Shown here in pieces: positions 12,414 to 32,589 of a stretch of DNA of 64,000 nt; position 1 is the stretch's first letter; every line of letters begins with the position of its first letter. The notes under the pieces are model-generated. The model was not told the origin of the DNA. It did no database searches and saw nothing but the letters and a program-made list of their open reading frames with translations. The DNA comes from Escherichia phage FV3. The stretch lies in sequence record NC_019517.1; one strand, 5' to 3'. A program made the position numbers and the translations under genes.

Positions 12414-12692
12414 ATGAGCTGCGAAAAATCTTTTTTCATCATCATTTACGGTAAGGATAACTGCCCACATTGTGTAAGAGCAAAAGAATTTGCAGTCAGT
12501 AAAGGCATACCTTTCGTATACAAGACGCTAGGTGAAGGATACACAAAAGAAGAGCTTATCGAGAAGTGTAGCCCATTTGTTCCCAGAACGTTGCCTCAGA
12601 TCTTCTTGGAAAGCAACCTTGACAGTATCCACATAGGTGGTGCTGACGATTTCATCTCTTTTGTTAAGAATGGTTTTGGAGAGAAAAAGTGA
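12414..12692 (+). CDS. glutaredoxin-like protein (phage NrdC-type)
   Basis: 92-aa ORF with CPHC active site and C-terminal PQIF...IGGADDF typical of glutaredoxins. Confidence 0.7.
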   Translation: MSCEKSFFIIIYGKDNCPHCVRAKEFAVSKGIPFVYKTLGEGYTKEELIEKCSPFVPRTLPQIFLESNLDSIHIGGADDFISFVKNGFGEKK

Positions 12693-13549
12693 AAGTTGTA
12701 AAACGGGACGGTAGAGAAGAGTTTTATAACGGAATTAAGGTGATCAAGGCGGCAGAGTCCGCCTTACTTGAGTCTGGACATACTGAAGAAGAAGCTTACC
12801 GGATTGCCTGTGCGGTTAATGAAGTTGTTGCCAACAATCTGCCAACTGACCAGTGCACGATCTCTGTAAAAAATATCCATATCCTTGTTGAAGATGCTCT
12901 TATGGATATGGGTTTAAAATGTGCAGCCAGAGAATACATCCAGTATAGACAGACAAGAGATAATAACAGAGAGGCAGGTGGAAAACTGCTTGCCGATATT
13001 AGTGGCTTCTTGGATCGTACTTGTGATGAATTTACAAAAGAAAACGCAAATAAGCCTACTAATCATGTACACACTCATCGTGACCTGCTTGCAGGAATCC
13101 TTAGCAAACATCTTGCATCAACACAGATCCTGCCAGACCGTGTCTCAGAAGAGCACAACAAAGGCTTCATCCATGTGCATGATCTTGACTACCTGATCAG
13201 TCCGTTAACAAACTGTTGTTTGGTGAATTATCCGGATATGCTGGAAAACGGATTCAACATTGGCAACGCCCATGTCAGTAAGCCGAAGTCAATAGGGGTT
13301 GCAACAACAATCCTTAGCCAAATCTCTAGTGCAGTAGCTAGTGCTCAATATGGCGGTCAGACCATGAGTCATATTGATCATTATTTGGCACAGTATGCTG
13401 AAGCAACTTATGAGAAGAACCTTAAATTTTGTCAGGAACATTGGTTGCCAGATGCTGAGACTGTTGCAATGCAAATGACAGATAAAGACGTGTTTGATAG
13501 TATGCAAACTTTGCTCTACCAAATCAATACGTTAACTTCTGTCAACGGT
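12689..13549 (+). CDS. nrdD: anaerobic ribonucleoside-triphosphate reductase, exon 1
   Basis: N-terminal ATP-cone (VVKRDGREEFY); reading frame stops 1 codon past proposed 5' splice site; exon ends in T. Confidence 0.75.
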
Positions 13550-14347
13550 TAACAAACTGGCCGTTGTAAAACTCTCCTAACCTCATAAGAGGGGTCGGTA
13601 AATCCGGCTAACGGGGAACGCTAAGGCGAAAGCTATGCCAATCCCGTGACTAGTTCTTACAGGAGTTGGAACGGTTGTAACGACTAACGAAAGGCAGAGA
13701 TGCTTGACAAACATTTCTGAACCGAGTAGTGTAGGGGTTAGTTGAAATACTAACTTCGAAAGGGAGAGACTCTATGAAAAAGATCATTCTTAATGGTGAA
13801 GAATCGAACTACGTGATTGATGAGGTGGGAAACGTATACGGAAAACGTGGAATGCTGCACCCCATATTGTGGGGAGGTTATGGAAAAGGTAACAAGCATG
13901 TTAAACGCCGCTATATGTATTCTTTCAACCACAAAGGTAAGAAGATTCGAATCCAAACTTCAAGGGTTGTTGCCTTGTATTGTTTGCCAGATGTCCCAGA
14001 AGACCCTGAAAACTGGGAAGTGAATCATAAAGATGGCAATACATTGAATGATCATCCGTCTAACCTAGAGTGGGTTTTGCCGGAAGATAATAAGAGACAT
14101 GCTTTCCGAACAGGGCTTTGTCCAGGCAAGTGCTACAGGAAAGTGCAGGCATACCAAGGGAAAACCTTGGTGGGTGAATATCCTTCACTCTATGCCTGTG
14201 CAAAAGCCTTAAATTTGAACGTAGGGAACGTCCATAGGGCTATCGAAGGAAATGCCGAAGGTAAGCATCTCACAATAAAGGGTTATTATCTTATTGAAGT
14301 AGAGTAAGAGATAGTCTGGCCCTGTGGAAACACAGGGGTGGAGACAG
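13550..14347 (+). mobile_element. group I intron in nrdD with 5' catalytic core and 3' HNH homing-endonuclease ORF
   Basis: Intervening ~0.8 kb between two NrdD halves; 13550-13773 is non-coding with group I-like elements (AATCCGGCTAACGGGGAACG, TAACGACTAACG R-like); 3' boundary uncertain by ~10 nt. Confidence 0.6.
13774..14307 (+). CDS. HNH homing endonuclease (intron-encoded)
   Basis: 177-aa ORF with VNHKDGNTLNDHPSNLEW HNH motif; RBS AGGGAGAG. Confidence 0.8.
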   Translation: MKKIILNGEESNYVIDEVGNVYGKRGMLHPILWGGYGKGNKHVKRRYMYSFNHKGKKIRIQTSRVVALYCLPDVPEDPENWEVNHKDGNTLNDHPSNLEWVLPEDNKRHAFRTGLCPGKCYRKVQAYQGKTLVGEYPSLYACAKALNLNVGNVHRAIEGNAEGKHLTIKGYYLIEVE

Positions 14348-15607
14348 CAGACTCCATTCATCACATTAAGTTTAGGGCTGGATACTTCGGTCTTTGGTAG
14401 AATGATTACCAAAAACTACTTGAAAGTTCACAAAATGGGTCTTGGTGAAGAACGGATCACACCTGTGTTCCCTAAAGTGCTGTTCTTCTTAGAGGAGGGT
14501 GTCAACATGAACCCTGGGGATCCTAACTACAATTTGAAACGATTGGCCCTAGAATGCTCTGCAGAGCGGATTTATCCTGACTTTGTTTCTGTTCCGCTAA
14601 ATCGTAAAGTGACAGGTTCAACAGACGGCAAAGTAACAAGCATGGGATGTAGGTCGTTCCTTGGCAAATACGTTACCCCGGAGGGTGATGAAAAATACCT
14701 TGGCAGATTCAACTTGGGTGTTGTTAGCCTTAACCTACCAATGATTGCGGCAAAAGCTAAGACGGAAGGTATTGATTTCTTTGCAGTTCTTGACGAATAC
14801 TTGGATCTTGCATACGAGGCTCACCTTGTAAGGGTTAACCGTCTAAAAGGAACAAAGGCAGGGCAGAACCCTATCATGTGGTGTGAAGGAGCTCTTGCTC
14901 GCCTGGATCCTGAAGAGAGTATCGATAAACTCTTCTATGACGGGTACGCTTCCATCAGTATTGGGTATATTGGTGTGTATGAAACCTGTCAGATTTTGGG
15001 CAGAGAGGGTGACAAGGCTTTAGCTCTTGGAATCCTTCAGCACATGAAAGATGCTTGTGATCGATATAAGAAGGAAAGTGGACTAGCATTTAGCTTGTAC
15101 GGCACACCTTCTGAGAGTTTATGCTATAAAGCTGCAACCTGTCTGGATCGTGAATACCCAGAAGTGTTGAAGCACGAGCATGAATACCTCACCAACAGTT
15201 TCCATCAGCCGGTATGGATCAATAGCTCGCCTTTTGATAAGTGGAAGTATGAGGAAGGTTTTGCTATGATCTCCTCTGGTGGCAACATTGGGGACATAGA
15301 GACACCGAATCTGAAAAACAACTTAGATGCTTTAGAAGCTCTTGTTGATTTCGGATATAAACATATTATGTATTTTGGTATTAACCAGCCTGTGGATAAA
15401 TGTCTTAAGTGTGGATTCTCTGGCGAGTTCAGTGCAACAGCTAAAGGCTTTGTATGCCCAGAGTGTGGAAACCATGAAGAAGGAACGATCAGTGTGATCA
15501 GACGCGTATCCGGGTATCTGTCCAGTCCAAACTCCCGCCCTTACAATAAGGGTAAGCAAGCTGAGGTTATAGAACGGGTTAAGCACTACGGAAGTTGTGG
15601 TTGCTGA
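14348..15607 (+). CDS. nrdD: anaerobic ribonucleoside-triphosphate reductase, exon 2
   Basis: Frame open from 14315; C-terminal zinc ribbon CLKCG...CPECG and glycyl-radical motif RVSGYL. Confidence 0.8.
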   Translation, partial: QTPFITLSLGLDTSVFGRMITKNYLKVHKMGLGEERITPVFPKVLFFLEEGVNMNPGDPNYNLKRLALECSAERIYPDFVSVPLNRKVTGSTDGKVTSMGCRSFLGKYVTPEGDEKYLGRFNLGVVSLNLPMIAAKAKTEGIDFFAVLDEYLDLAYEAHLVRVNRLKGTKAGQNPIMWCEGALARLDPEESIDKLFYDGYASISIGYIGVYETCQILGREGDKALALGILQHMKDACDRYKKESGLAFSLYGTPSESLCYKAATCLDREYPEVLKHEHEYLTNSFHQPVWINSSPFDKWKYEEGFAMISSGGNIGDIETPNLKNNLDALEALVDFGYKHIMYFGINQPVDKCLKCGFSGEFSATAKGFVCPECGNHEEGTISVIRRVSGYLSSPNSRPYNKGKQAEVIERVKHYGSCGC

Positions 15608-16818: not shown

Positions 16819-17607
16819 ATGGGTCGAGCTAAAGAAACAAAACGCATGCGTGATGAAGCTAGAGAGGCTCGCAAATCTGATCGCCTGCGTAAGGCTGCTG
16901 AAAAATTTGCTGACGAACGAGAGCACACCGCTCCAGCTCTCCGACCAATGAATAAAAAGCAGCAAAAGTATCTTGATTATCTAGGGTCGCGTAAGATTAT
17001 CATTGTAAACGGTGTGTTTGGATCCGGTAAGACATTCATGGCATCTGCATATGCAGGTGATCTTCTGCGCAAGAACGAGATTGATAAGATCATTGTTGCA
17101 CGTCCTTACGTTCAGACAGGAAAGACTTCAGGATTTAAACCTGGAAATGCAATGCAGAAACTGTGGCCCTATCTTCGAAGCATGATGGACACTATTTGTC
17201 GTCGTGTTGGCAAAGGTGCTTTTGCAGCAATGCTTGGGGACGGTCAGAACAGCCGTATCGAGATTTGTGAGGTTGAAAGCATTCGTGGTCGTAGTTTTGA
17301 TGAACGATGCTTTGTCCTTATTGATGAAGCACAGCAAACTAACCCTGAAGAAATGTTGTCAATTATCACAAGGATCTCTGATCAGGCCACCCTTGTAATT
17401 ATGGGCGATAACAGCCAACGTGACATCCCTGGTAAATCTGGCCTTGCATGGGTGACAGATTTCTTTACTCGTCATCCAGATCCTGAGGTTGGAATGATTA
17501 GCTTTGATAGTCCAGACGATGTCGTTCGTTCCGGGCTGGGTCGTCAGATTGCACTCAATCTTATTGAGGATCGTGCAAATCATATTTGGACTCCTGTTTC
17601 CGAGTAA
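16819..17607 (+). CDS. phoH: PhoH-like ATPase
   Basis: 262-aa ORF; Walker A GVFGSGKTF with PhoH-like context; RBS AAAGGAG. Confidence 0.85.
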   Translation: MGRAKETKRMRDEAREARKSDRLRKAAEKFADEREHTAPALRPMNKKQQKYLDYLGSRKIIIVNGVFGSGKTFMASAYAGDLLRKNEIDKIIVARPYVQTGKTSGFKPGNAMQKLWPYLRSMMDTICRRVGKGAFAAMLGDGQNSRIEICEVESIRGRSFDERCFVLIDEAQQTNPEEMLSIITRISDQATLVIMGDNSQRDIPGKSGLAWVTDFFTRHPDPEVGMISFDSPDDVVRSGLGRQIALNLIEDRANHIWTPVSE

Positions 17608-17612
17608 TACAG

Positions 17613-17640
17613 AAGGGTGGTTATTCCACCCTTAAATATC
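17613..17640 (+). terminator. hairpin, weak terminator
   Basis: AAGGGTGG-TTATT-CCACCCTT after phoH; weak T-tract. Confidence 0.3.
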
Positions 17641-17651
17641 TAAAACAGTTG

Positions 17652-17680
17652 TTGACAAACAGGTGAGCTTTAGATATTAT
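17652..17680 (+). promoter_or_regulatory. sigma70-like promoter (TTGACA-17-TATTAT)
   Basis: TTGACA 17652-17657, TATTAT 17675-17680. Confidence 0.45.
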
Positions 17681-18022
17681 TATTGGACAAAACAAGGAGA
17701 AGGACACAGTATGGCTACAATACAAGAGAGACTGAATAAAATATACTGCCTGTTTGTCTATAACGGTGAGACAATTTTGGCAAATAAGGGATCCAAGAGT
17801 GTGTGGACCAAGGACAGTGGTGGTAACATAATCAACTTAGCGTTGCTACGTGAGCGCAGACACAGATTCTTTATCGAGTCTCGGATTATTGAAAGCAGCA
17901 CCTGCTACAGAACAGGCGATAAAGTAATTGTTGACAATGATACGTGGTATGTGGTAGACTGGCAATCATTGAGCTGTGATGCTTCTGACAATCGTAAGTA
18001 TTCTATAGTGATTGCTAAATAA
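17663..18022 (+). CDS. hypothetical protein
   Basis: 119-aa ORF; alternative ATG at 17711 after AAGGAGAAGG. Confidence 0.4.
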   Translation: MSFRYYYWTKQGEGHSMATIQERLNKIYCLFVYNGETILANKGSKSVWTKDSGGNIINLALLRERRHRFFIESRIIESSTCYRTGDKVIVDNDTWYVVDWQSLSCDASDNRKYSIVIAK

Positions 18023-18082: not shown

Positions 18083-19132
18083 ATGAATTTAACACCTCGC
18101 AGCACCATGGTACACGGCATGAAAGAAAAACAGAACGGTTTCGAACCTATGAGTAACAAAATGTTTGGTATGCCTGGTGGTATTATGGAAACATACAGCT
18201 ACCCAACACCTGTTGTTGACCACGTTCTTTATATCGACGATTTGGACGACCTACAAGATCATATGTCTCGTCTACAGACGATCCGTATGGCTCAGCCAGA
18301 AGAAAGTATCCGTGTAATCATTAACAGCCCTGGTGGTTGCGTTCACATTGCTATGGCGTATTTGCAGGCATTCCGCGAGTCTCAGGCAAGCGTTGTTGTA
18401 CACGCTGAAGGGATGTGCTGTTCAGCAGGAACAATCTTATGGCTAGGTTGCAAAGAACGAACTGTGGCTCCGGACACAGAATTTATGTTCCACTATTATC
18501 AAGGTGGCACTTATGGTAACGGCGTGAACATGAATACCCAGGTCAACTACTGGAAGAAACGTTTTGAACGCCTGATCGAAAAATACTACGGTGGGGTGTT
18601 AACAGAAGATGAGATCGCATCCATCACAGCTGGCGGTGAAGTGTGGTTAGATGGAGAAGAGCTGGCATCTAGAACTGGTGCTATCATTCTGGACGATGAA
18701 AACATTCAGCGCATTCAGAATGGACAGAAACCGAAAAAGCTTTTGGCAAAAAGTGATGAAGAAGGTGTGCTAGGCGAAGCAGGCCTGCCAGAGATTCACC
18801 AATGCACATCTTTGGACGAGCTGGTTCATGCTGTTGAGTCTGCAAAAGAAAATGGTATGAAAGGTGATGTTCACACTGTGTTCCTGAATCTGCAGATGGA
18901 GAGTGGTGAGACCGTTAAGATTGCACTGGGTGAGATTACCTCGGAAGATCTGCAGCGATTCTCTGTGGTAGAGCTTCAGGACATTTTGTCCCAATTGAAA
19001 ACTACCCTGAACGGAGGTGAAGAAGTTCAGGTGAAAGATAAGACTCGCAAGCGTCTGGTGGACAATATTATTAAAACAGCAAAAGAGCTCAATGAAAAAA
19101 TCCTGGGCGCAGGAATTGTCGAAGAAGCTTAA
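18083..19132 (+). CDS. ClpP-like serine peptidase (S14 family) with C-terminal extension
   Basis: INSPGG, GMCCSAGT (catalytic Ser) and MFHYYQ (His) motifs; ~150-aa acidic C-terminal extension. Confidence 0.65.
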   Translation: MNLTPRSTMVHGMKEKQNGFEPMSNKMFGMPGGIMETYSYPTPVVDHVLYIDDLDDLQDHMSRLQTIRMAQPEESIRVIINSPGGCVHIAMAYLQAFRESQASVVVHAEGMCCSAGTILWLGCKERTVAPDTEFMFHYYQGGTYGNGVNMNTQVNYWKKRFERLIEKYYGGVLTEDEIASITAGGEVWLDGEELASRTGAIILDDENIQRIQNGQKPKKLLAKSDEEGVLGEAGLPEIHQCTSLDELVHAVESAKENGMKGDVHTVFLNLQMESGETVKIALGEITSEDLQRFSVVELQDILSQLKTTLNGGEEVQVKDKTRKRLVDNIIKTAKELNEKILGAGIVEEA

Positions 19133-19145
19133 ACATTAATTCTAA

Positions 19146-19168
19146 AGCCCTCTTCGGAGGGCTTTTAT
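19146..19168 (+). terminator. intrinsic terminator
   Basis: AGCCCTC-TTCG-GAGGGCT followed by TTTAT. Confidence 0.5.
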
Positions 19169-19183
19169 GATCTGGAGATTTGC

Positions 19184-19717
19184 ATGACTTGTGCTAGAAA
19201 ACCTGATGAACAACGTAACGCTTACGACGAGTATGTGACACCGGAGTGGTGTGCAGAAGGGCTGTATGACCTTATTCCGTTCCCAGAAGACTGGACCTAC
19301 TTAGAGCCTTGCAGGAATAGCGCTTCAGGTGTGTTCTACTCCCGTATGCCGTTAGGATCTGCATGGGGAGAAATTCAAGAAGGTGTTGACTATCTGAATA
19401 CAGAATACAACCATGTTGACTGTATTATCACCAACCCGCCGTACAGCCTGGCTCGTGAGTTTGTGGACAAGGCGTTGAAAGATGCCGACGTAGTTATTAT
19501 GCTTTTGCGTCTTAATTTTCTGGAAAGCAAGACCAGATTTGAATGGTGGCTTGATAATGCACCTACCACTGTGATCACAATATCTAAGCGTCCGTCATTC
19601 CAATCCAATGGTAGAACGGATGGGCAGGCATATGCCTATTTTGTATGGGACAAGAAAAACCGTCTAGGCTTGCCGCCATTTATGTGGTTGGCACCACCAG
19701 AGGCAGACTTGAAATGA
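19184..19717 (+). CDS. DNA methyltransferase (NPPY motif), probable N6-adenine
   Basis: 177-aa ORF with DCIITNPPYSLAREF. Confidence 0.5.
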   Translation: MTCARKPDEQRNAYDEYVTPEWCAEGLYDLIPFPEDWTYLEPCRNSASGVFYSRMPLGSAWGEIQEGVDYLNTEYNHVDCIITNPPYSLAREFVDKALKDADVVIMLLRLNFLESKTRFEWWLDNAPTTVITISKRPSFQSNGRTDGQAYAYFVWDKKNRLGLPPFMWLAPPEADLK

Positions 19718-30497: not shown

Positions 30498-30522
30498 CAA
30501 AATATCAAATTTAAGGCACCTA

Positions 30523-30548
30523 GGACGCTCTGTGGCGTCCTTTTCTTT
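30523..30548 (+). terminator. intrinsic terminator
   Basis: GGACGC-TCTGTG-GCGTCC followed by TTTTCTTT. Confidence 0.55.
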
Positions 30549-30710
30549 ATCTGGTGCACGATTGCATACCTTGGGTAGTTAATCTCATTACAGAGCGTTT
30601 AATAGCGGCCTGTAAACAGATCTCTATTTCGAGCGTAGCGAGAACGCACGTCCGTTTTGACCCAAATCACCATACGCTCGGATTTTAACCAAACCCTCGC
30701 GGCGTTTCTG

Positions 30711-30739
30711 TTGACACATTACCGCTCCTGTGATAGTAT
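30711..30739 (+). promoter_or_regulatory. sigma70-like promoter (TTGACA-17-TAGTAT)
   Basis: TTGACA 30711-30716, TAGTAT 30734-30739. Confidence 0.4.
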
Positions 30740-30857
30740 CCTCACATAGTTTGTAGAATATGAAATACGCAATGAAAACATTATCTGAGGTTTTAGTGGT
30801 GATCCTGATGATCATTACGTCCATAGCAGTTGTTGCCGGAATACTCACGGGTGGAAC

Positions 30858-31046
30858 ATGACCAACACACATGCACCTAAAGAGACATCTGAAGAAGCGA
30901 CTATAGAGAAAAACTTCAATTCTGAGGATTCTTTATCTCCGTCTCAGGTAGATCCTGAGGCTGATGACCTGACGTGGGAAGACATCGTAGACATCTGGTT
31001 CTCTATCATGCCTGAGCACGAAGAGTTCAGAGGTGGGAGACTATGA
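30858..31046 (+). CDS. hypothetical acidic protein
   Basis: 62-aa ORF. Confidence 0.4.
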   Translation: MTNTHAPKETSEEATIEKNFNSEDSLSPSQVDPEADDLTWEDIVDIWFSIMPEHEEFRGGRL

Positions 31047-31165
31047 AGCACCGAGCCCACATAAGTTTATCATGCTAAAGCATGGCCTGAAGAGGCAAAC
31101 GTGCATAATTCCAGTGCATTGGAACGTATAACCCTGTTCACACTCTCATTTCCAGAGGAGATTTT

Positions 31166-31381
31166 ATGAAGATAGAAATATTTGGTGGAGCTGACAACAC
31201 TCGTGGCCTGATTTACCTTGAATTCGATGAATCATACCTGCCAGAGGTGTTAAATATAGACTCTGTTGCTGAGGCTTTGGGAGTAAACCCTAAAGAACTC
31301 CACTCTTGTGCTGAGATCGATGGTTGGGAAGAGACCATGAACATTGATTTCAGTGAAGTAGAGGATGAACCGCTGGACTGA
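31166..31381 (+). CDS. small acidic protein, MKVK family
   Basis: 71 aa, MKIEIFGGADNT...; last rightward gene before strand switch. Confidence 0.5.
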   Translation: MKIEIFGGADNTRGLIYLEFDESYLPEVLNIDSVAEALGVNPKELHSCAEIDGWEETMNIDFSEVEDEPLD

Positions 31382-31593
31382 CACACAATTAGCTGCCCGG
31401 CTAAAGTGCTGGAAGCACCTATAACACATCTTTCAACTAAATTTCCTACCACCACAATCACTTACCTCCCACACATGACTGTTTGCTTGTTTAGTGAGCA
31501 GTCATTCCTTGACATTCTTGCCTATCCTGATAAAATTAAGTTCTTCTCTTTTCTTTTACCGAGTAATTCGGGTTTTCTGTTCTCTTCGGTTTG

Positions 31594-31810
31594 AAGGGGT
31601 ATGGAGATACACCTGAGTGAACAGGGTGAACAACCGAACCTTTAGCTATGGCATTAGCATGGCGAAGCGGACGGGTGACGAAAGAGGGGCCGGAGGACAC
31701 CAGTCACTGCCATATGGTATATGGGTGATAACCTGAAGAGTCTGAATAAGTGTTTAAGTACCAGTCAGAGGAAAAGGTGAATGGTAGCCGAAGGGGGAGG
31801 GGGGTTTCTT
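31594..31810. other. G/purine-rich non-coding segment, candidate structured RNA
   Basis: No ORF >=60 aa on either strand; composition unlike flanking AT-rich DNA; ends in G-run GGGGGAGGGGGG; strand undetermined. Confidence 0.3.
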
Positions 31811-32589
31811 GTATCTTTAATTTGTATACTTTATATACACTTGTAAACCAATTCAATTAGAATATGGATACCACACAAAGTGGATAGAGGCAAATATTCC
31901 CTATTAAACTTGAATTATTTATAGAAAATACCACAACACTGCTTAAGTCTTTGATTTTACACACAAATATTACAAATATCCTGCCTCTATATTTAACATA
32001 CCTGTAACATATTCCATACTCTCCCTGATTGATCAATTCCCCAACTACATCCCCATATTTTCCCTTCCTGTACTACCCCTGCCCCGCCGGGAGTCCCGTC
32101 ATATCTGGCTTTCCAGCAAATATCACACCCACAAATATCATTGCCTGAAGAGGGTTTCATCCCATAATACCTGCCTTACCCGAAGAGCGCTTCATACACC
32201 ACGTAAATTTTTTAATTGACCTGCAATTTTCCTGCAGACCCACCCCCTGCCCAGCCGGAGAGGTTGGCTTTTCCCACACAGGCCTGAAGAGTCAGCCAGA
32301 AATATCTGAAGGGGGTCCAGTTCTACCACGATTTTGACCTGACCTACAGGAGCGCTGCCAGGCGGACGAAATGGGAATACTTCTCATTCTTATAACAATT
32401 CTCAAATATCGGGGCAGTGAGGCAAATTAATAGGCGAGGCCGTTCACACAGTGGCACAACATTTGCAAGCTATTTTGCGGGGGTGAATGAGAATACCTAT
32501 CATTGTGAGAATAGTTATCATTACGGGCAATTTAACATAATACCCATTATGCGCACCACTGGCGATACATACAGGGATTGATAACATGG

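Follow-up and report, generated by a model that had tools for sequence, protein, structure and literature searches.

A ClpP-fold putative peptidase encoded among replication and nucleotide-metabolism genes of Escherichia phage FV3

The window analysed here is a 64,000-nucleotide stretch of Escherichia phage FV3 (NC_019517.1), a Vequintavirus (rV5-like E. coli myovirus), and the gene under study is an open reading frame (ORF) at positions 18083-19132 (+) that encodes a ClpP-like protein. On balance, this protein is somewhat likely to be a stand-alone Ser-His(-Glu) peptidase that acts in the replication phase of infection, is non-structural, works without canonical docking to ClpX/ClpA, and takes its specificity from a private C-terminal tail and/or the 103-amino-acid (aa) product of the preceding gene. 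The conclusion that it is not a prohead protease is well supported by genome context.

The ORF begins with ATG, has AAGGA ahead of the start and encodes 349 aa plus a stop; its coordinates are precisely those called in a first-pass annotation made from the sequence alone. Over 100 phage genomes match the 5-kb segment around the gene at 94-98% identity, and the copies of the protein in more than 100 Vequintavirus genomes share 96-99.7% of their residues with it. Its counterpart in phage rV5 is gp122 (349 aa, 38.5 kDa, isoelectric point (pI) 5.0; PMC3606486 Table S3). Databases have carried an annotation of the gene since the rV5 genome was published in 2013, so the gene is no discovery. Records of the relatives carry the labels ‘ClpP ATP-dependent protease subunit’, ‘ATP-dependent protease’ and ‘ClpP-like protease’; the usual labels of the gene appear to be wrong or unsupported. 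The protein matches PHROG 5410, the long form of phage ‘ATP-dependent protease’, with E=2.9e-155 over residues 24-345 (profile positions 4-322 of 323). Since this match includes the C-terminal region, the tail is a feature of a catalogued phage family and is not peculiar to the FV3 window.

The protein has the following parts, with model confidence given as the predicted local distance difference test (pLDDT):

18083..18214 (+): N-terminal region, residues 1-44, predicted to be disordered (pLDDT 33-44)
18215..18682 (+): ClpP-fold catalytic core, residues 45-200, from Pfam, AlphaFold, Foldseek and hhalign
18422-18424, 18491-18493 and 18638-18640 (+): catalytic positions Ser114, His137 and Glu186, from alignment with ClpP
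18683..18853 (+): linker, residues 201-257, a conserved NIxRxQxGQ helix and then a variable segment of low confidence
18854..19129 (+): C-terminal domain, residues 258-349, in which a beta-hairpin is followed by a short helix and then by a helix-loop-long helix

The core is recognised by Pfam CLP_protease (PF00574) at 50 bits against a cutoff of 20.2, in a partial match to profile positions 32-143 of 182. A single-chain AlphaFold (AF2) model with 40 homologues as input is confident over residues 45-220 (pLDDT ~90), and it keeps the handle strand and helix of ClpP (residues 150-169, helix E). All top Foldseek matches in the PDB are ClpP, with E ~1e-9 and template modelling (TM) scores of 0.65-0.72 (target-normalised) over ~165 residues. 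Alignment by hhalign against E. coli ClpP gives a probability of 95.8%.

The Ser and His motifs of the ClpP fold that the first-pass annotation had pointed out are both present; GMCCSAGT occupies residues 110-117 and MFHYYQ residues 135-140. Alignment of the motifs (phmmer to solved ClpP structures and hhalign to E. coli ClpP) places Ser114 and His137 on ClpP Ser97 and His122. Both residues are invariant in 40/40 family members and also in the ClpP-like proteins of seven phage lineages with 24-27% identity, among them ICP1, H101, CB7, PaP1, T5-like and KVP40-like phages. G84 and G85, the GG motif of the oxyanion region, are invariant across very divergent lineages. The triad as a whole is less secure, since its Ser and His align without change but the acid does not. 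The position of ClpP Asp171 is Glu186 here and D, E or Q across the family, being Asp in ICP1, a T5-like phage and VH7D, and Gln in the Seunavirus and Hena1-like clades. With the Ser-His pair conserved and the acid only loosely so, the putative peptidase activity is probable. A catalytically weak or inactive ClpR-like protein, serving as a scaffold or chaperone, would fit the Gln of these two clades and the low scores against curated protease models. However, the invariance of Ser114, His137 and the two glycines is the pattern expected from purifying selection on catalysis, and this alternative is very improbable.

A partnership with host ClpX or ClpA, which the first-pass annotation had suggested, is doubtful because the docking pocket for the IGF loop and acyldepsipeptide (ADEP) is not conserved in the alignment. 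The pocket residues of E. coli ClpP were taken from a published list (bioRxiv 10.1101/2023.03.01.530711), and 15 of the 16 could be mapped, L189 being past the end of the alignment. The E. coli ClpP query has the proper length (207 aa), and S97, H122, D171 and the pocket positions in it are the expected residues. The replacements are as follows:

ClpP Y60 corresponds to R77 (18311), invariant
ClpP F82 corresponds to E99 (18377), invariant
ClpP I90 corresponds to H107 (18401), invariant
ClpP M92 corresponds to E109 (18407), invariant
ClpP F112 corresponds to T127, invariant
ClpP Y62 corresponds to I79
ClpP L114 corresponds to A129
ClpP L48, F49, E51 and A52 fall inside a 5-residue deletion (L48-A52)
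ClpP V28 and F30 correspond to V48 and Y50, the only conservative equivalents

At four key hydrophobic positions of the pocket, the family has R, E, H and E without variation. Canonical ClpX/ClpA docking is doubtful because a hydrophobic IGF-loop pocket has given way to invariant charged residues, and the protein probably does not use the host ATPases in the canonical way.

Other elements of ClpP also differ. The segment of the ClpP axial loop and helix A is unmatched: residues 1-41 have pLDDT <50, the Pfam match does not begin until profile position 32, and hhalign pairs ClpP residues 20-27 with YPTPVVDH. N25, G29, Y40 and P41 in this N-terminal region are conserved among family members. In ClpP the Arg that follows the catalytic Asp is the ring-ring sensor. 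That Arg is absent from the FV3 protein, in which the local sequence is GGEVWL.

These features bear on the possibility that the protein is a true ClpP subunit, which would form a tetradecamer alone or with host ClpP, be driven by ClpX/ClpA and redirect the host AAA+ machinery to substrates chosen by the phage. Bacterial ClpP (MEROPS S14, PF00574, TIGR00493; E. coli) shares with it the fold, the Pfam match, the GxxxSAG and MxH motifs and the handle strand and helix E; the homologues of ICP1 and a T5-like phage keep the canonical Asp, and many GenBank records carry the ClpP annotation. However, identity to bacterial ClpP is ~20%, Glu186 stands in place of Asp171, and the FV3 protein has a charged pocket with residues replaced or deleted, axial loops and helix A that are not conserved and are predicted to be disordered, no sensor Arg, and an extra linker and domain of ~150 residues. 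All NCBIfam ClpP models failed, with 33.5 bits against 308.6 for TIGR00493 and 38.1 against 249 for PRK00277. A true ClpP subunit is thus an improbable identity for this protein.

The first-pass annotation had described a long acidic C-terminal extension of ~150 residues. The extension itself is real (residues 201-349) and occurs in all 39 full-length homologues. Its acidity is not a defining property, because the pI of the tail (4.81, net charge -10) equals that of the core (4.81) and varies from 4.2 to 6.7 across the family. In the linker, N207, I208 and G214 are invariant; pLDDT is 38-57 over residues 221-260, and the family alignment shows an insert that is confined to the rV5 clade. The C-terminal domain modelled alone is a small alpha/beta domain (pLDDT 84.5, predicted TM score 0.74) in which F293, E297 and R322 are invariant. 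It has no Pfam match, and the best E in a PDB sequence search is 0.59. When 1.84 billion representative proteins were searched exhaustively with a profile, six hits came up, none outside the family except one leucine-rich repeat (LRR) false positive; the non-LRR hits are family members or fragments. The sole significant match among predicted viral structures is a 303-aa protein, which was taken as a family member. The tails of ICP1 gp211 and H101 gp124 have no detectable homology to the FV3 tail (hhalign probability 0.3%; nothing by BLASTP). On the evidence of these searches, the C-terminal domain is private to the PHROG 5410-type family.

Genome context bears on the prohead protease question. 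The first-pass annotation had suggested that the protein is something other than a prohead protease, and the complete genome of a relative, MaxBurger, agrees with this by placing the ClpP-like gene outside the head-morphogenesis module. The MaxBurger head module lies at 3.2-7.7 kb and contains the portal, a 139-aa protease, the scaffold, a decoration protein and the major capsid protein (MCP). The ClpP-like gene is at 105.8-106.8 kb on the opposite strand, ~33 kb from the head module on the circular map. The 139-aa protein, bas54_0006 (L001 4838-5257), adjoins the scaffold gene and is a separate protease of the XkdF type (Peptidase_S78_2, 65 bits against a cutoff of 24). No head genes were found in the 64-kb FV3 window. 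Vibrio phage K312 served as a positive control, and its ClpP-type head protease does lie within a large terminase (TerL)-portal-protease-MCP order. In ICP1 the block gp176-gp211, which ends with the gene of the ClpP-like homologue gp211, reaches its peak at 12 min; the capsid cluster gp122-126 is expressed late and includes a predicted protease of its own, gp125 (PMC7567579). As a side observation, the best PHROG match of bas54_0006 is phrog_1530, labelled ‘DNA methyltransferase’, while the Pfam assignment is clearly to XkdF-type Peptidase_S78_2; the phrog_1530 label looks mislabelled or derived from a fusion.

The association with replication genes extends to other phages. Homologues in ICP1, H101, CB7, PaP1, T5-like and KVP40-like phages lie among nucleotide-metabolism or replication genes, as do those of 31 de-duplicated metagenomic lineages. 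Loci with relatives of the protein were collected from 80 viral contigs and scanned over a 6-kb range with a hidden Markov model of PhoH that was based on the sequences of four phages. It detected PhoH in 41/80 loci, in each case upstream on the same strand and 115-4245 bp away. By form, it was present in 16/16 long-form and 25/62 short-form loci. De-duplication at 75% identity gave 28 evaluable clusters, 18 of them with PhoH in this position, and the same upstream order occurs in ICP1, H101 and CB7. A Pfam census of the surrounding 6 kb in 31 representative de-duplicated loci covered all 240 neighbour proteins with a length of 150 aa or more. The most frequent families were PhoH (16), the ribonucleotide reductase (RNR) large subunit (12), the RNR small subunit (10) and RNase H / 5'-3' exonuclease (8), followed by gp59 (7), gp32 (6), ThyX (4) and NrdD (3). 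Portal, capsid and terminase families were absent from the 25 most frequent families in either half of the census, a count in which a single occurrence could be missed. One of these homologues, H101 gp124 (L009 4962-6017), is called ‘head maturation protease’ in RefSeq and lies between PhoH and a phosphatase plus methyltransferase, with no head module; it is probably mis-annotated by similarity.

As judged from sequence and gene order, the FV3 protein is a third kind of ClpP-fold protein, which is nearer in sequence to phage maturation proteases and is located with replication and auxiliary genes. The closest curated sequence family is that of the ClpP-related head-maturation proteases (NF045542; PHROGs 1684, 94, 2976 and 133; K312). 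Proteins of this group are likewise phage-encoded, have the ClpP fold, lack a dedicated ATPase and often have C-terminal extensions. Unlike them, the FV3 protein scores below the cutoff, lies in a replication and nucleotide-metabolism region, coexists with a separate XkdF-type prohead protease of the phage and has a private tail domain. The short phage ‘ATP-dependent proteases’ (PHROG 1827; PaP1 gp041, T5-like DevonBitter CDS0113 and VH7D) have the same core with invariant Ser and His; they also occur away from head genes and beside nucleotide-metabolism genes, often with PhoH upstream. However, they are 180-260 aa long, lack the C-terminal domain and have cores with 24-27% identity to that of the FV3 protein. 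In ICP1 and Pseudoalteromonas phage H101, as in FV3, PhoH is followed by one or two small ORFs and then by the gene of a long ClpP-like protein (gp211 and gp124, with 326 and 351 aa). The ICP1 core is 36% identical to that of FV3 and keeps the canonical Asp, whereas neither tail is detectably homologous.

The genes and signals that flank the protease gene in the FV3 window are:

16819..17607 (+): PhoH-like P-loop ATPase, 262 aa (Pfam PhoH, 160.9 bits)
17614-17631 (+): hairpin GGGTGG-TTATT-CCACCC, directly after the PhoH stop and just 5' of the sigma70-like promoter
17652..17680 (+): sigma70-type promoter-like site, TTGACA-17-TATTAT, 11/12 matches in a consensus scan; predicted promoter P121 of rV5 (PMC3606486 Table S4)
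17711..18022 (+): 103-aa ORF, homologue of rV5 gp121 (PHROG 5456, E=1e-38), with the ribosome-binding site AAGGAG
19147..19169 (+): terminator-like hairpin GCCCTC-TTCG-GAGGGC followed by TTTTAT, in a 56-nt stretch (19130-19185) that folds at -14.9 kcal/mol; predicted terminator t122 of rV5 (PMC3606486 Table S4)
19184..19717 (+): N6-adenine-methyltransferase-like protein, 177 aa, with an NPPY motif (PHROG 799, E=4e-67)

The placement of the gene between phoH and a methyltransferase in the first-pass annotation is therefore only partly correct; a methyltransferase-like gene does follow, but the 103-aa ORF intervenes on the phoH side. The product of this ORF is basic and gave no match in Pfam and NCBIfam scans. 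In 14 loci of the Vequintavirinae type, the ORF is conserved in this position, just 5' of the gene for the long ClpP-like protein. The predicted promoter and terminator bracket a two-gene unit of the 103-aa ORF and the protease, which are probably co-transcribed, and the 103-aa protein is a candidate partner, adaptor or inhibitor of the protease. The hairpin after PhoH suggests that PhoH and the protease unit would be separate transcripts in FV3 despite their conserved adjacency. In rV5 the gp122 gene lies within a transcription unit of genes 82-163, and the T4-late-like promoter motif occurs upstream of structural genes 27-66 only (PMC3606486).

The match of the methyltransferase-like protein to PHROG 799 is confined to the C-terminal half of that family, and its weak Pfam hits, EcoRI_methylase and Dam, are below threshold. 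In the Vequintavirinae loci (L014-L027 and L007) an NPPY methyltransferase-like gene of 177-226 aa lies directly 3' of the long ClpP-like gene. For nearly every long-form locus, CB7 among them, the distance is between -3 and 49 bp; in L018/L019 it is 671 bp. Overlap or abutment (-3 to 0 bp) in several genera suggests translational coupling in those phages; in the FV3 window, the terminator-like hairpin separates the two genes.

Taken together, these features are consistent with the following course of action for a stand-alone peptidase. Catalysis would be carried out by Ser114-His137 with Glu186 in place of Asp; these residues and the fold are present, and the activity is predicted from them. 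The protein may assemble into ClpP-like rings through the head and handle elements retained in the single-chain model. Going by the alignment, canonical docking of host ClpX/ClpA would not take place, and substrates or partners may instead be chosen by the private C-terminal domain and/or the putatively co-transcribed 103-aa protein. The protein would be made in the early or middle (replication) phase of infection. Because the gene is constantly found with PhoH, ribonucleotide reductase and replication genes, the most likely job of the protein would be the processing or removal of particular host or phage proteins during the conversion of the cell to phage DNA synthesis. The regulatory function that the first-pass annotation had proposed for it, with host or phage proteins as targets, is a hypothesis.

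Several points weigh against this interpretation. The catalytic strength is uncertain because many relatives have Gln at the third triad position. The pocket was mapped through an hhalign profile alignment and not on a structure of the assembled ring, and the promoter and terminator are predictions. A literature search found no functional study of any family member. The timing in ICP1 is given for the gene range and not for gp211 individually. In NCBIfam the best model is NF045542 (‘head maturation protease, ClpP-related’), which failed with 62.8 bits against a cutoff of 120, and the second best is a model of a ClpP-like prohead protease/MCP fusion. Head-maturation families of PHROG were matched at 1.5e-23 to 1e-7, with the phrog_1684 alignment reaching residue 259. 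Since the NF045542 score is higher than the ClpP scores, there is room for a morphogenetic ancestry or an accessory role. Prohead proteases usually leave the capsid, so absence from virions is a weak or uninformative sign in favor of a non-structural protein. The rV5 gp122 protein was not among the 19 proteins detected in virions (PMC3606486).

The NCBIfam and PHROG matches lead to another explanation, in which the gene, though distant from the head genes, codes for a ClpP-related head-maturation protease with an accessory part in morphogenesis. The tail would then be scaffold-like or capsid-targeting, and the protein would act alongside or instead of the XkdF-type protease. The ranking of the NCBIfam models and the PHROG head-maturation hits favor this role, and ClpP-type prohead proteases commonly have C-terminal targeting or scaffold extensions. 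The MaxBurger head scaffold protein is also acidic (pI 4.7). However, the NF045542 score is half of the cutoff, the head module already has a protease and a scaffold, and the tail is a family-private alpha/beta domain with no long coiled coil. The gene is with PhoH, RNR and replication genes in the lineages examined, whereas the K312 protease lies between portal and MCP. The promoter is of the sigma70 type and does not have the late motif, and the timing of the ICP1 block is middle. A morphogenetic role is therefore unlikely, and the stand-alone replication-phase peptidase is preferred.

The PhoH linkage raises the further possibility that the PhoH-like ATPase is the partner of the protease, either as an energy-dependent component or through a shared pathway. 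PhoH is 5' on the same strand in every long-form locus, in 25/62 short-form loci and in 18/28 clusters, and it is the commonest neighbour (16/240); chance co-location (6 kb, one side and strand, ~130-kb genome) is estimated at a few percent. However, common inheritance of a block of genes in related replication modules may account for the adjacency, and 10/28 clusters do not have PhoH inside 6 kb. In the FV3 window a terminator-like hairpin and a promoter lie between PhoH and the protease unit. PhoH is also a RecA/SF1-like P-loop ATPase and not an AAA+ unfoldase with IGF loops. Such a coupling has a low probability. In its broadest form, PhoH-like ATPase and ClpP-derived peptidase would make up a two-gene auxiliary unit of large virulent phages for autonomous energy-dependent degradation or remodelling in the replication phase, which is a speculative proposal. 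It is equally conjectural that, in such a PhoH-peptidase unit, the docking pocket was traded for a charged surface, a recognition domain was gained in some lineages and the targets are host or defence proteins.

Two other features of the window were noted. The nrdD gene is split: the N-terminal part at 12689-13552 has the ATP-cone and NRDD profile positions 1-154, and the C-terminal part at 14324-15607 has profile positions 155-562 and the glycyl-radical domain. An HNH endonuclease ORF (13774-14307) lies in the insert between the two halves (12689-15607 overall). The MaxBurger nrdD coding sequence is annotated as two joined pieces with a homing endonuclease within, which is consistent with an intron. 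The other feature is an ORF-poor stretch of ~2 kb at ~30500-32500, located at the switch from + to - transcription and at the peak of the cumulative GC skew; it corresponds to a ~2.5-kb unannotated gap in MaxBurger (92.8-95.3 kb). The rV5 genome map shows a ‘non-coding’ box (PMC3606486), which may be the same region. No Rfam family or tRNA was found in the stretch, and it contains only short repeats that are compatible with chance.

Many large lytic phages have stand-alone ClpP-like genes; rV5-like phages, ICP1, T5-like phages, Pakpunavirus, KVP40-like phages and a large number of marine phages are examples. The results suggest that neither of the routine labels, ‘ATP-dependent Clp protease proteolytic subunit’ and ‘head maturation protease’, is justified for the family, because the gene sits with replication genes and the protein lacks the surface for ATP dependence based on ClpX/ClpA. 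For phage PhoH, which is widespread and serves as a marker gene, the repeated linkage offers a lead that can be tested, and a PhoH-peptidase unit, if true, would give a function to both phage PhoH and phage ‘ClpP’. If the protein is an autonomous mid-infection protease, its substrates would open a new way to study how the host is taken over or its defences are countered by phages such as Vequintavirus and ICP1, which are used in therapy and in studies of the phage-host arms race.

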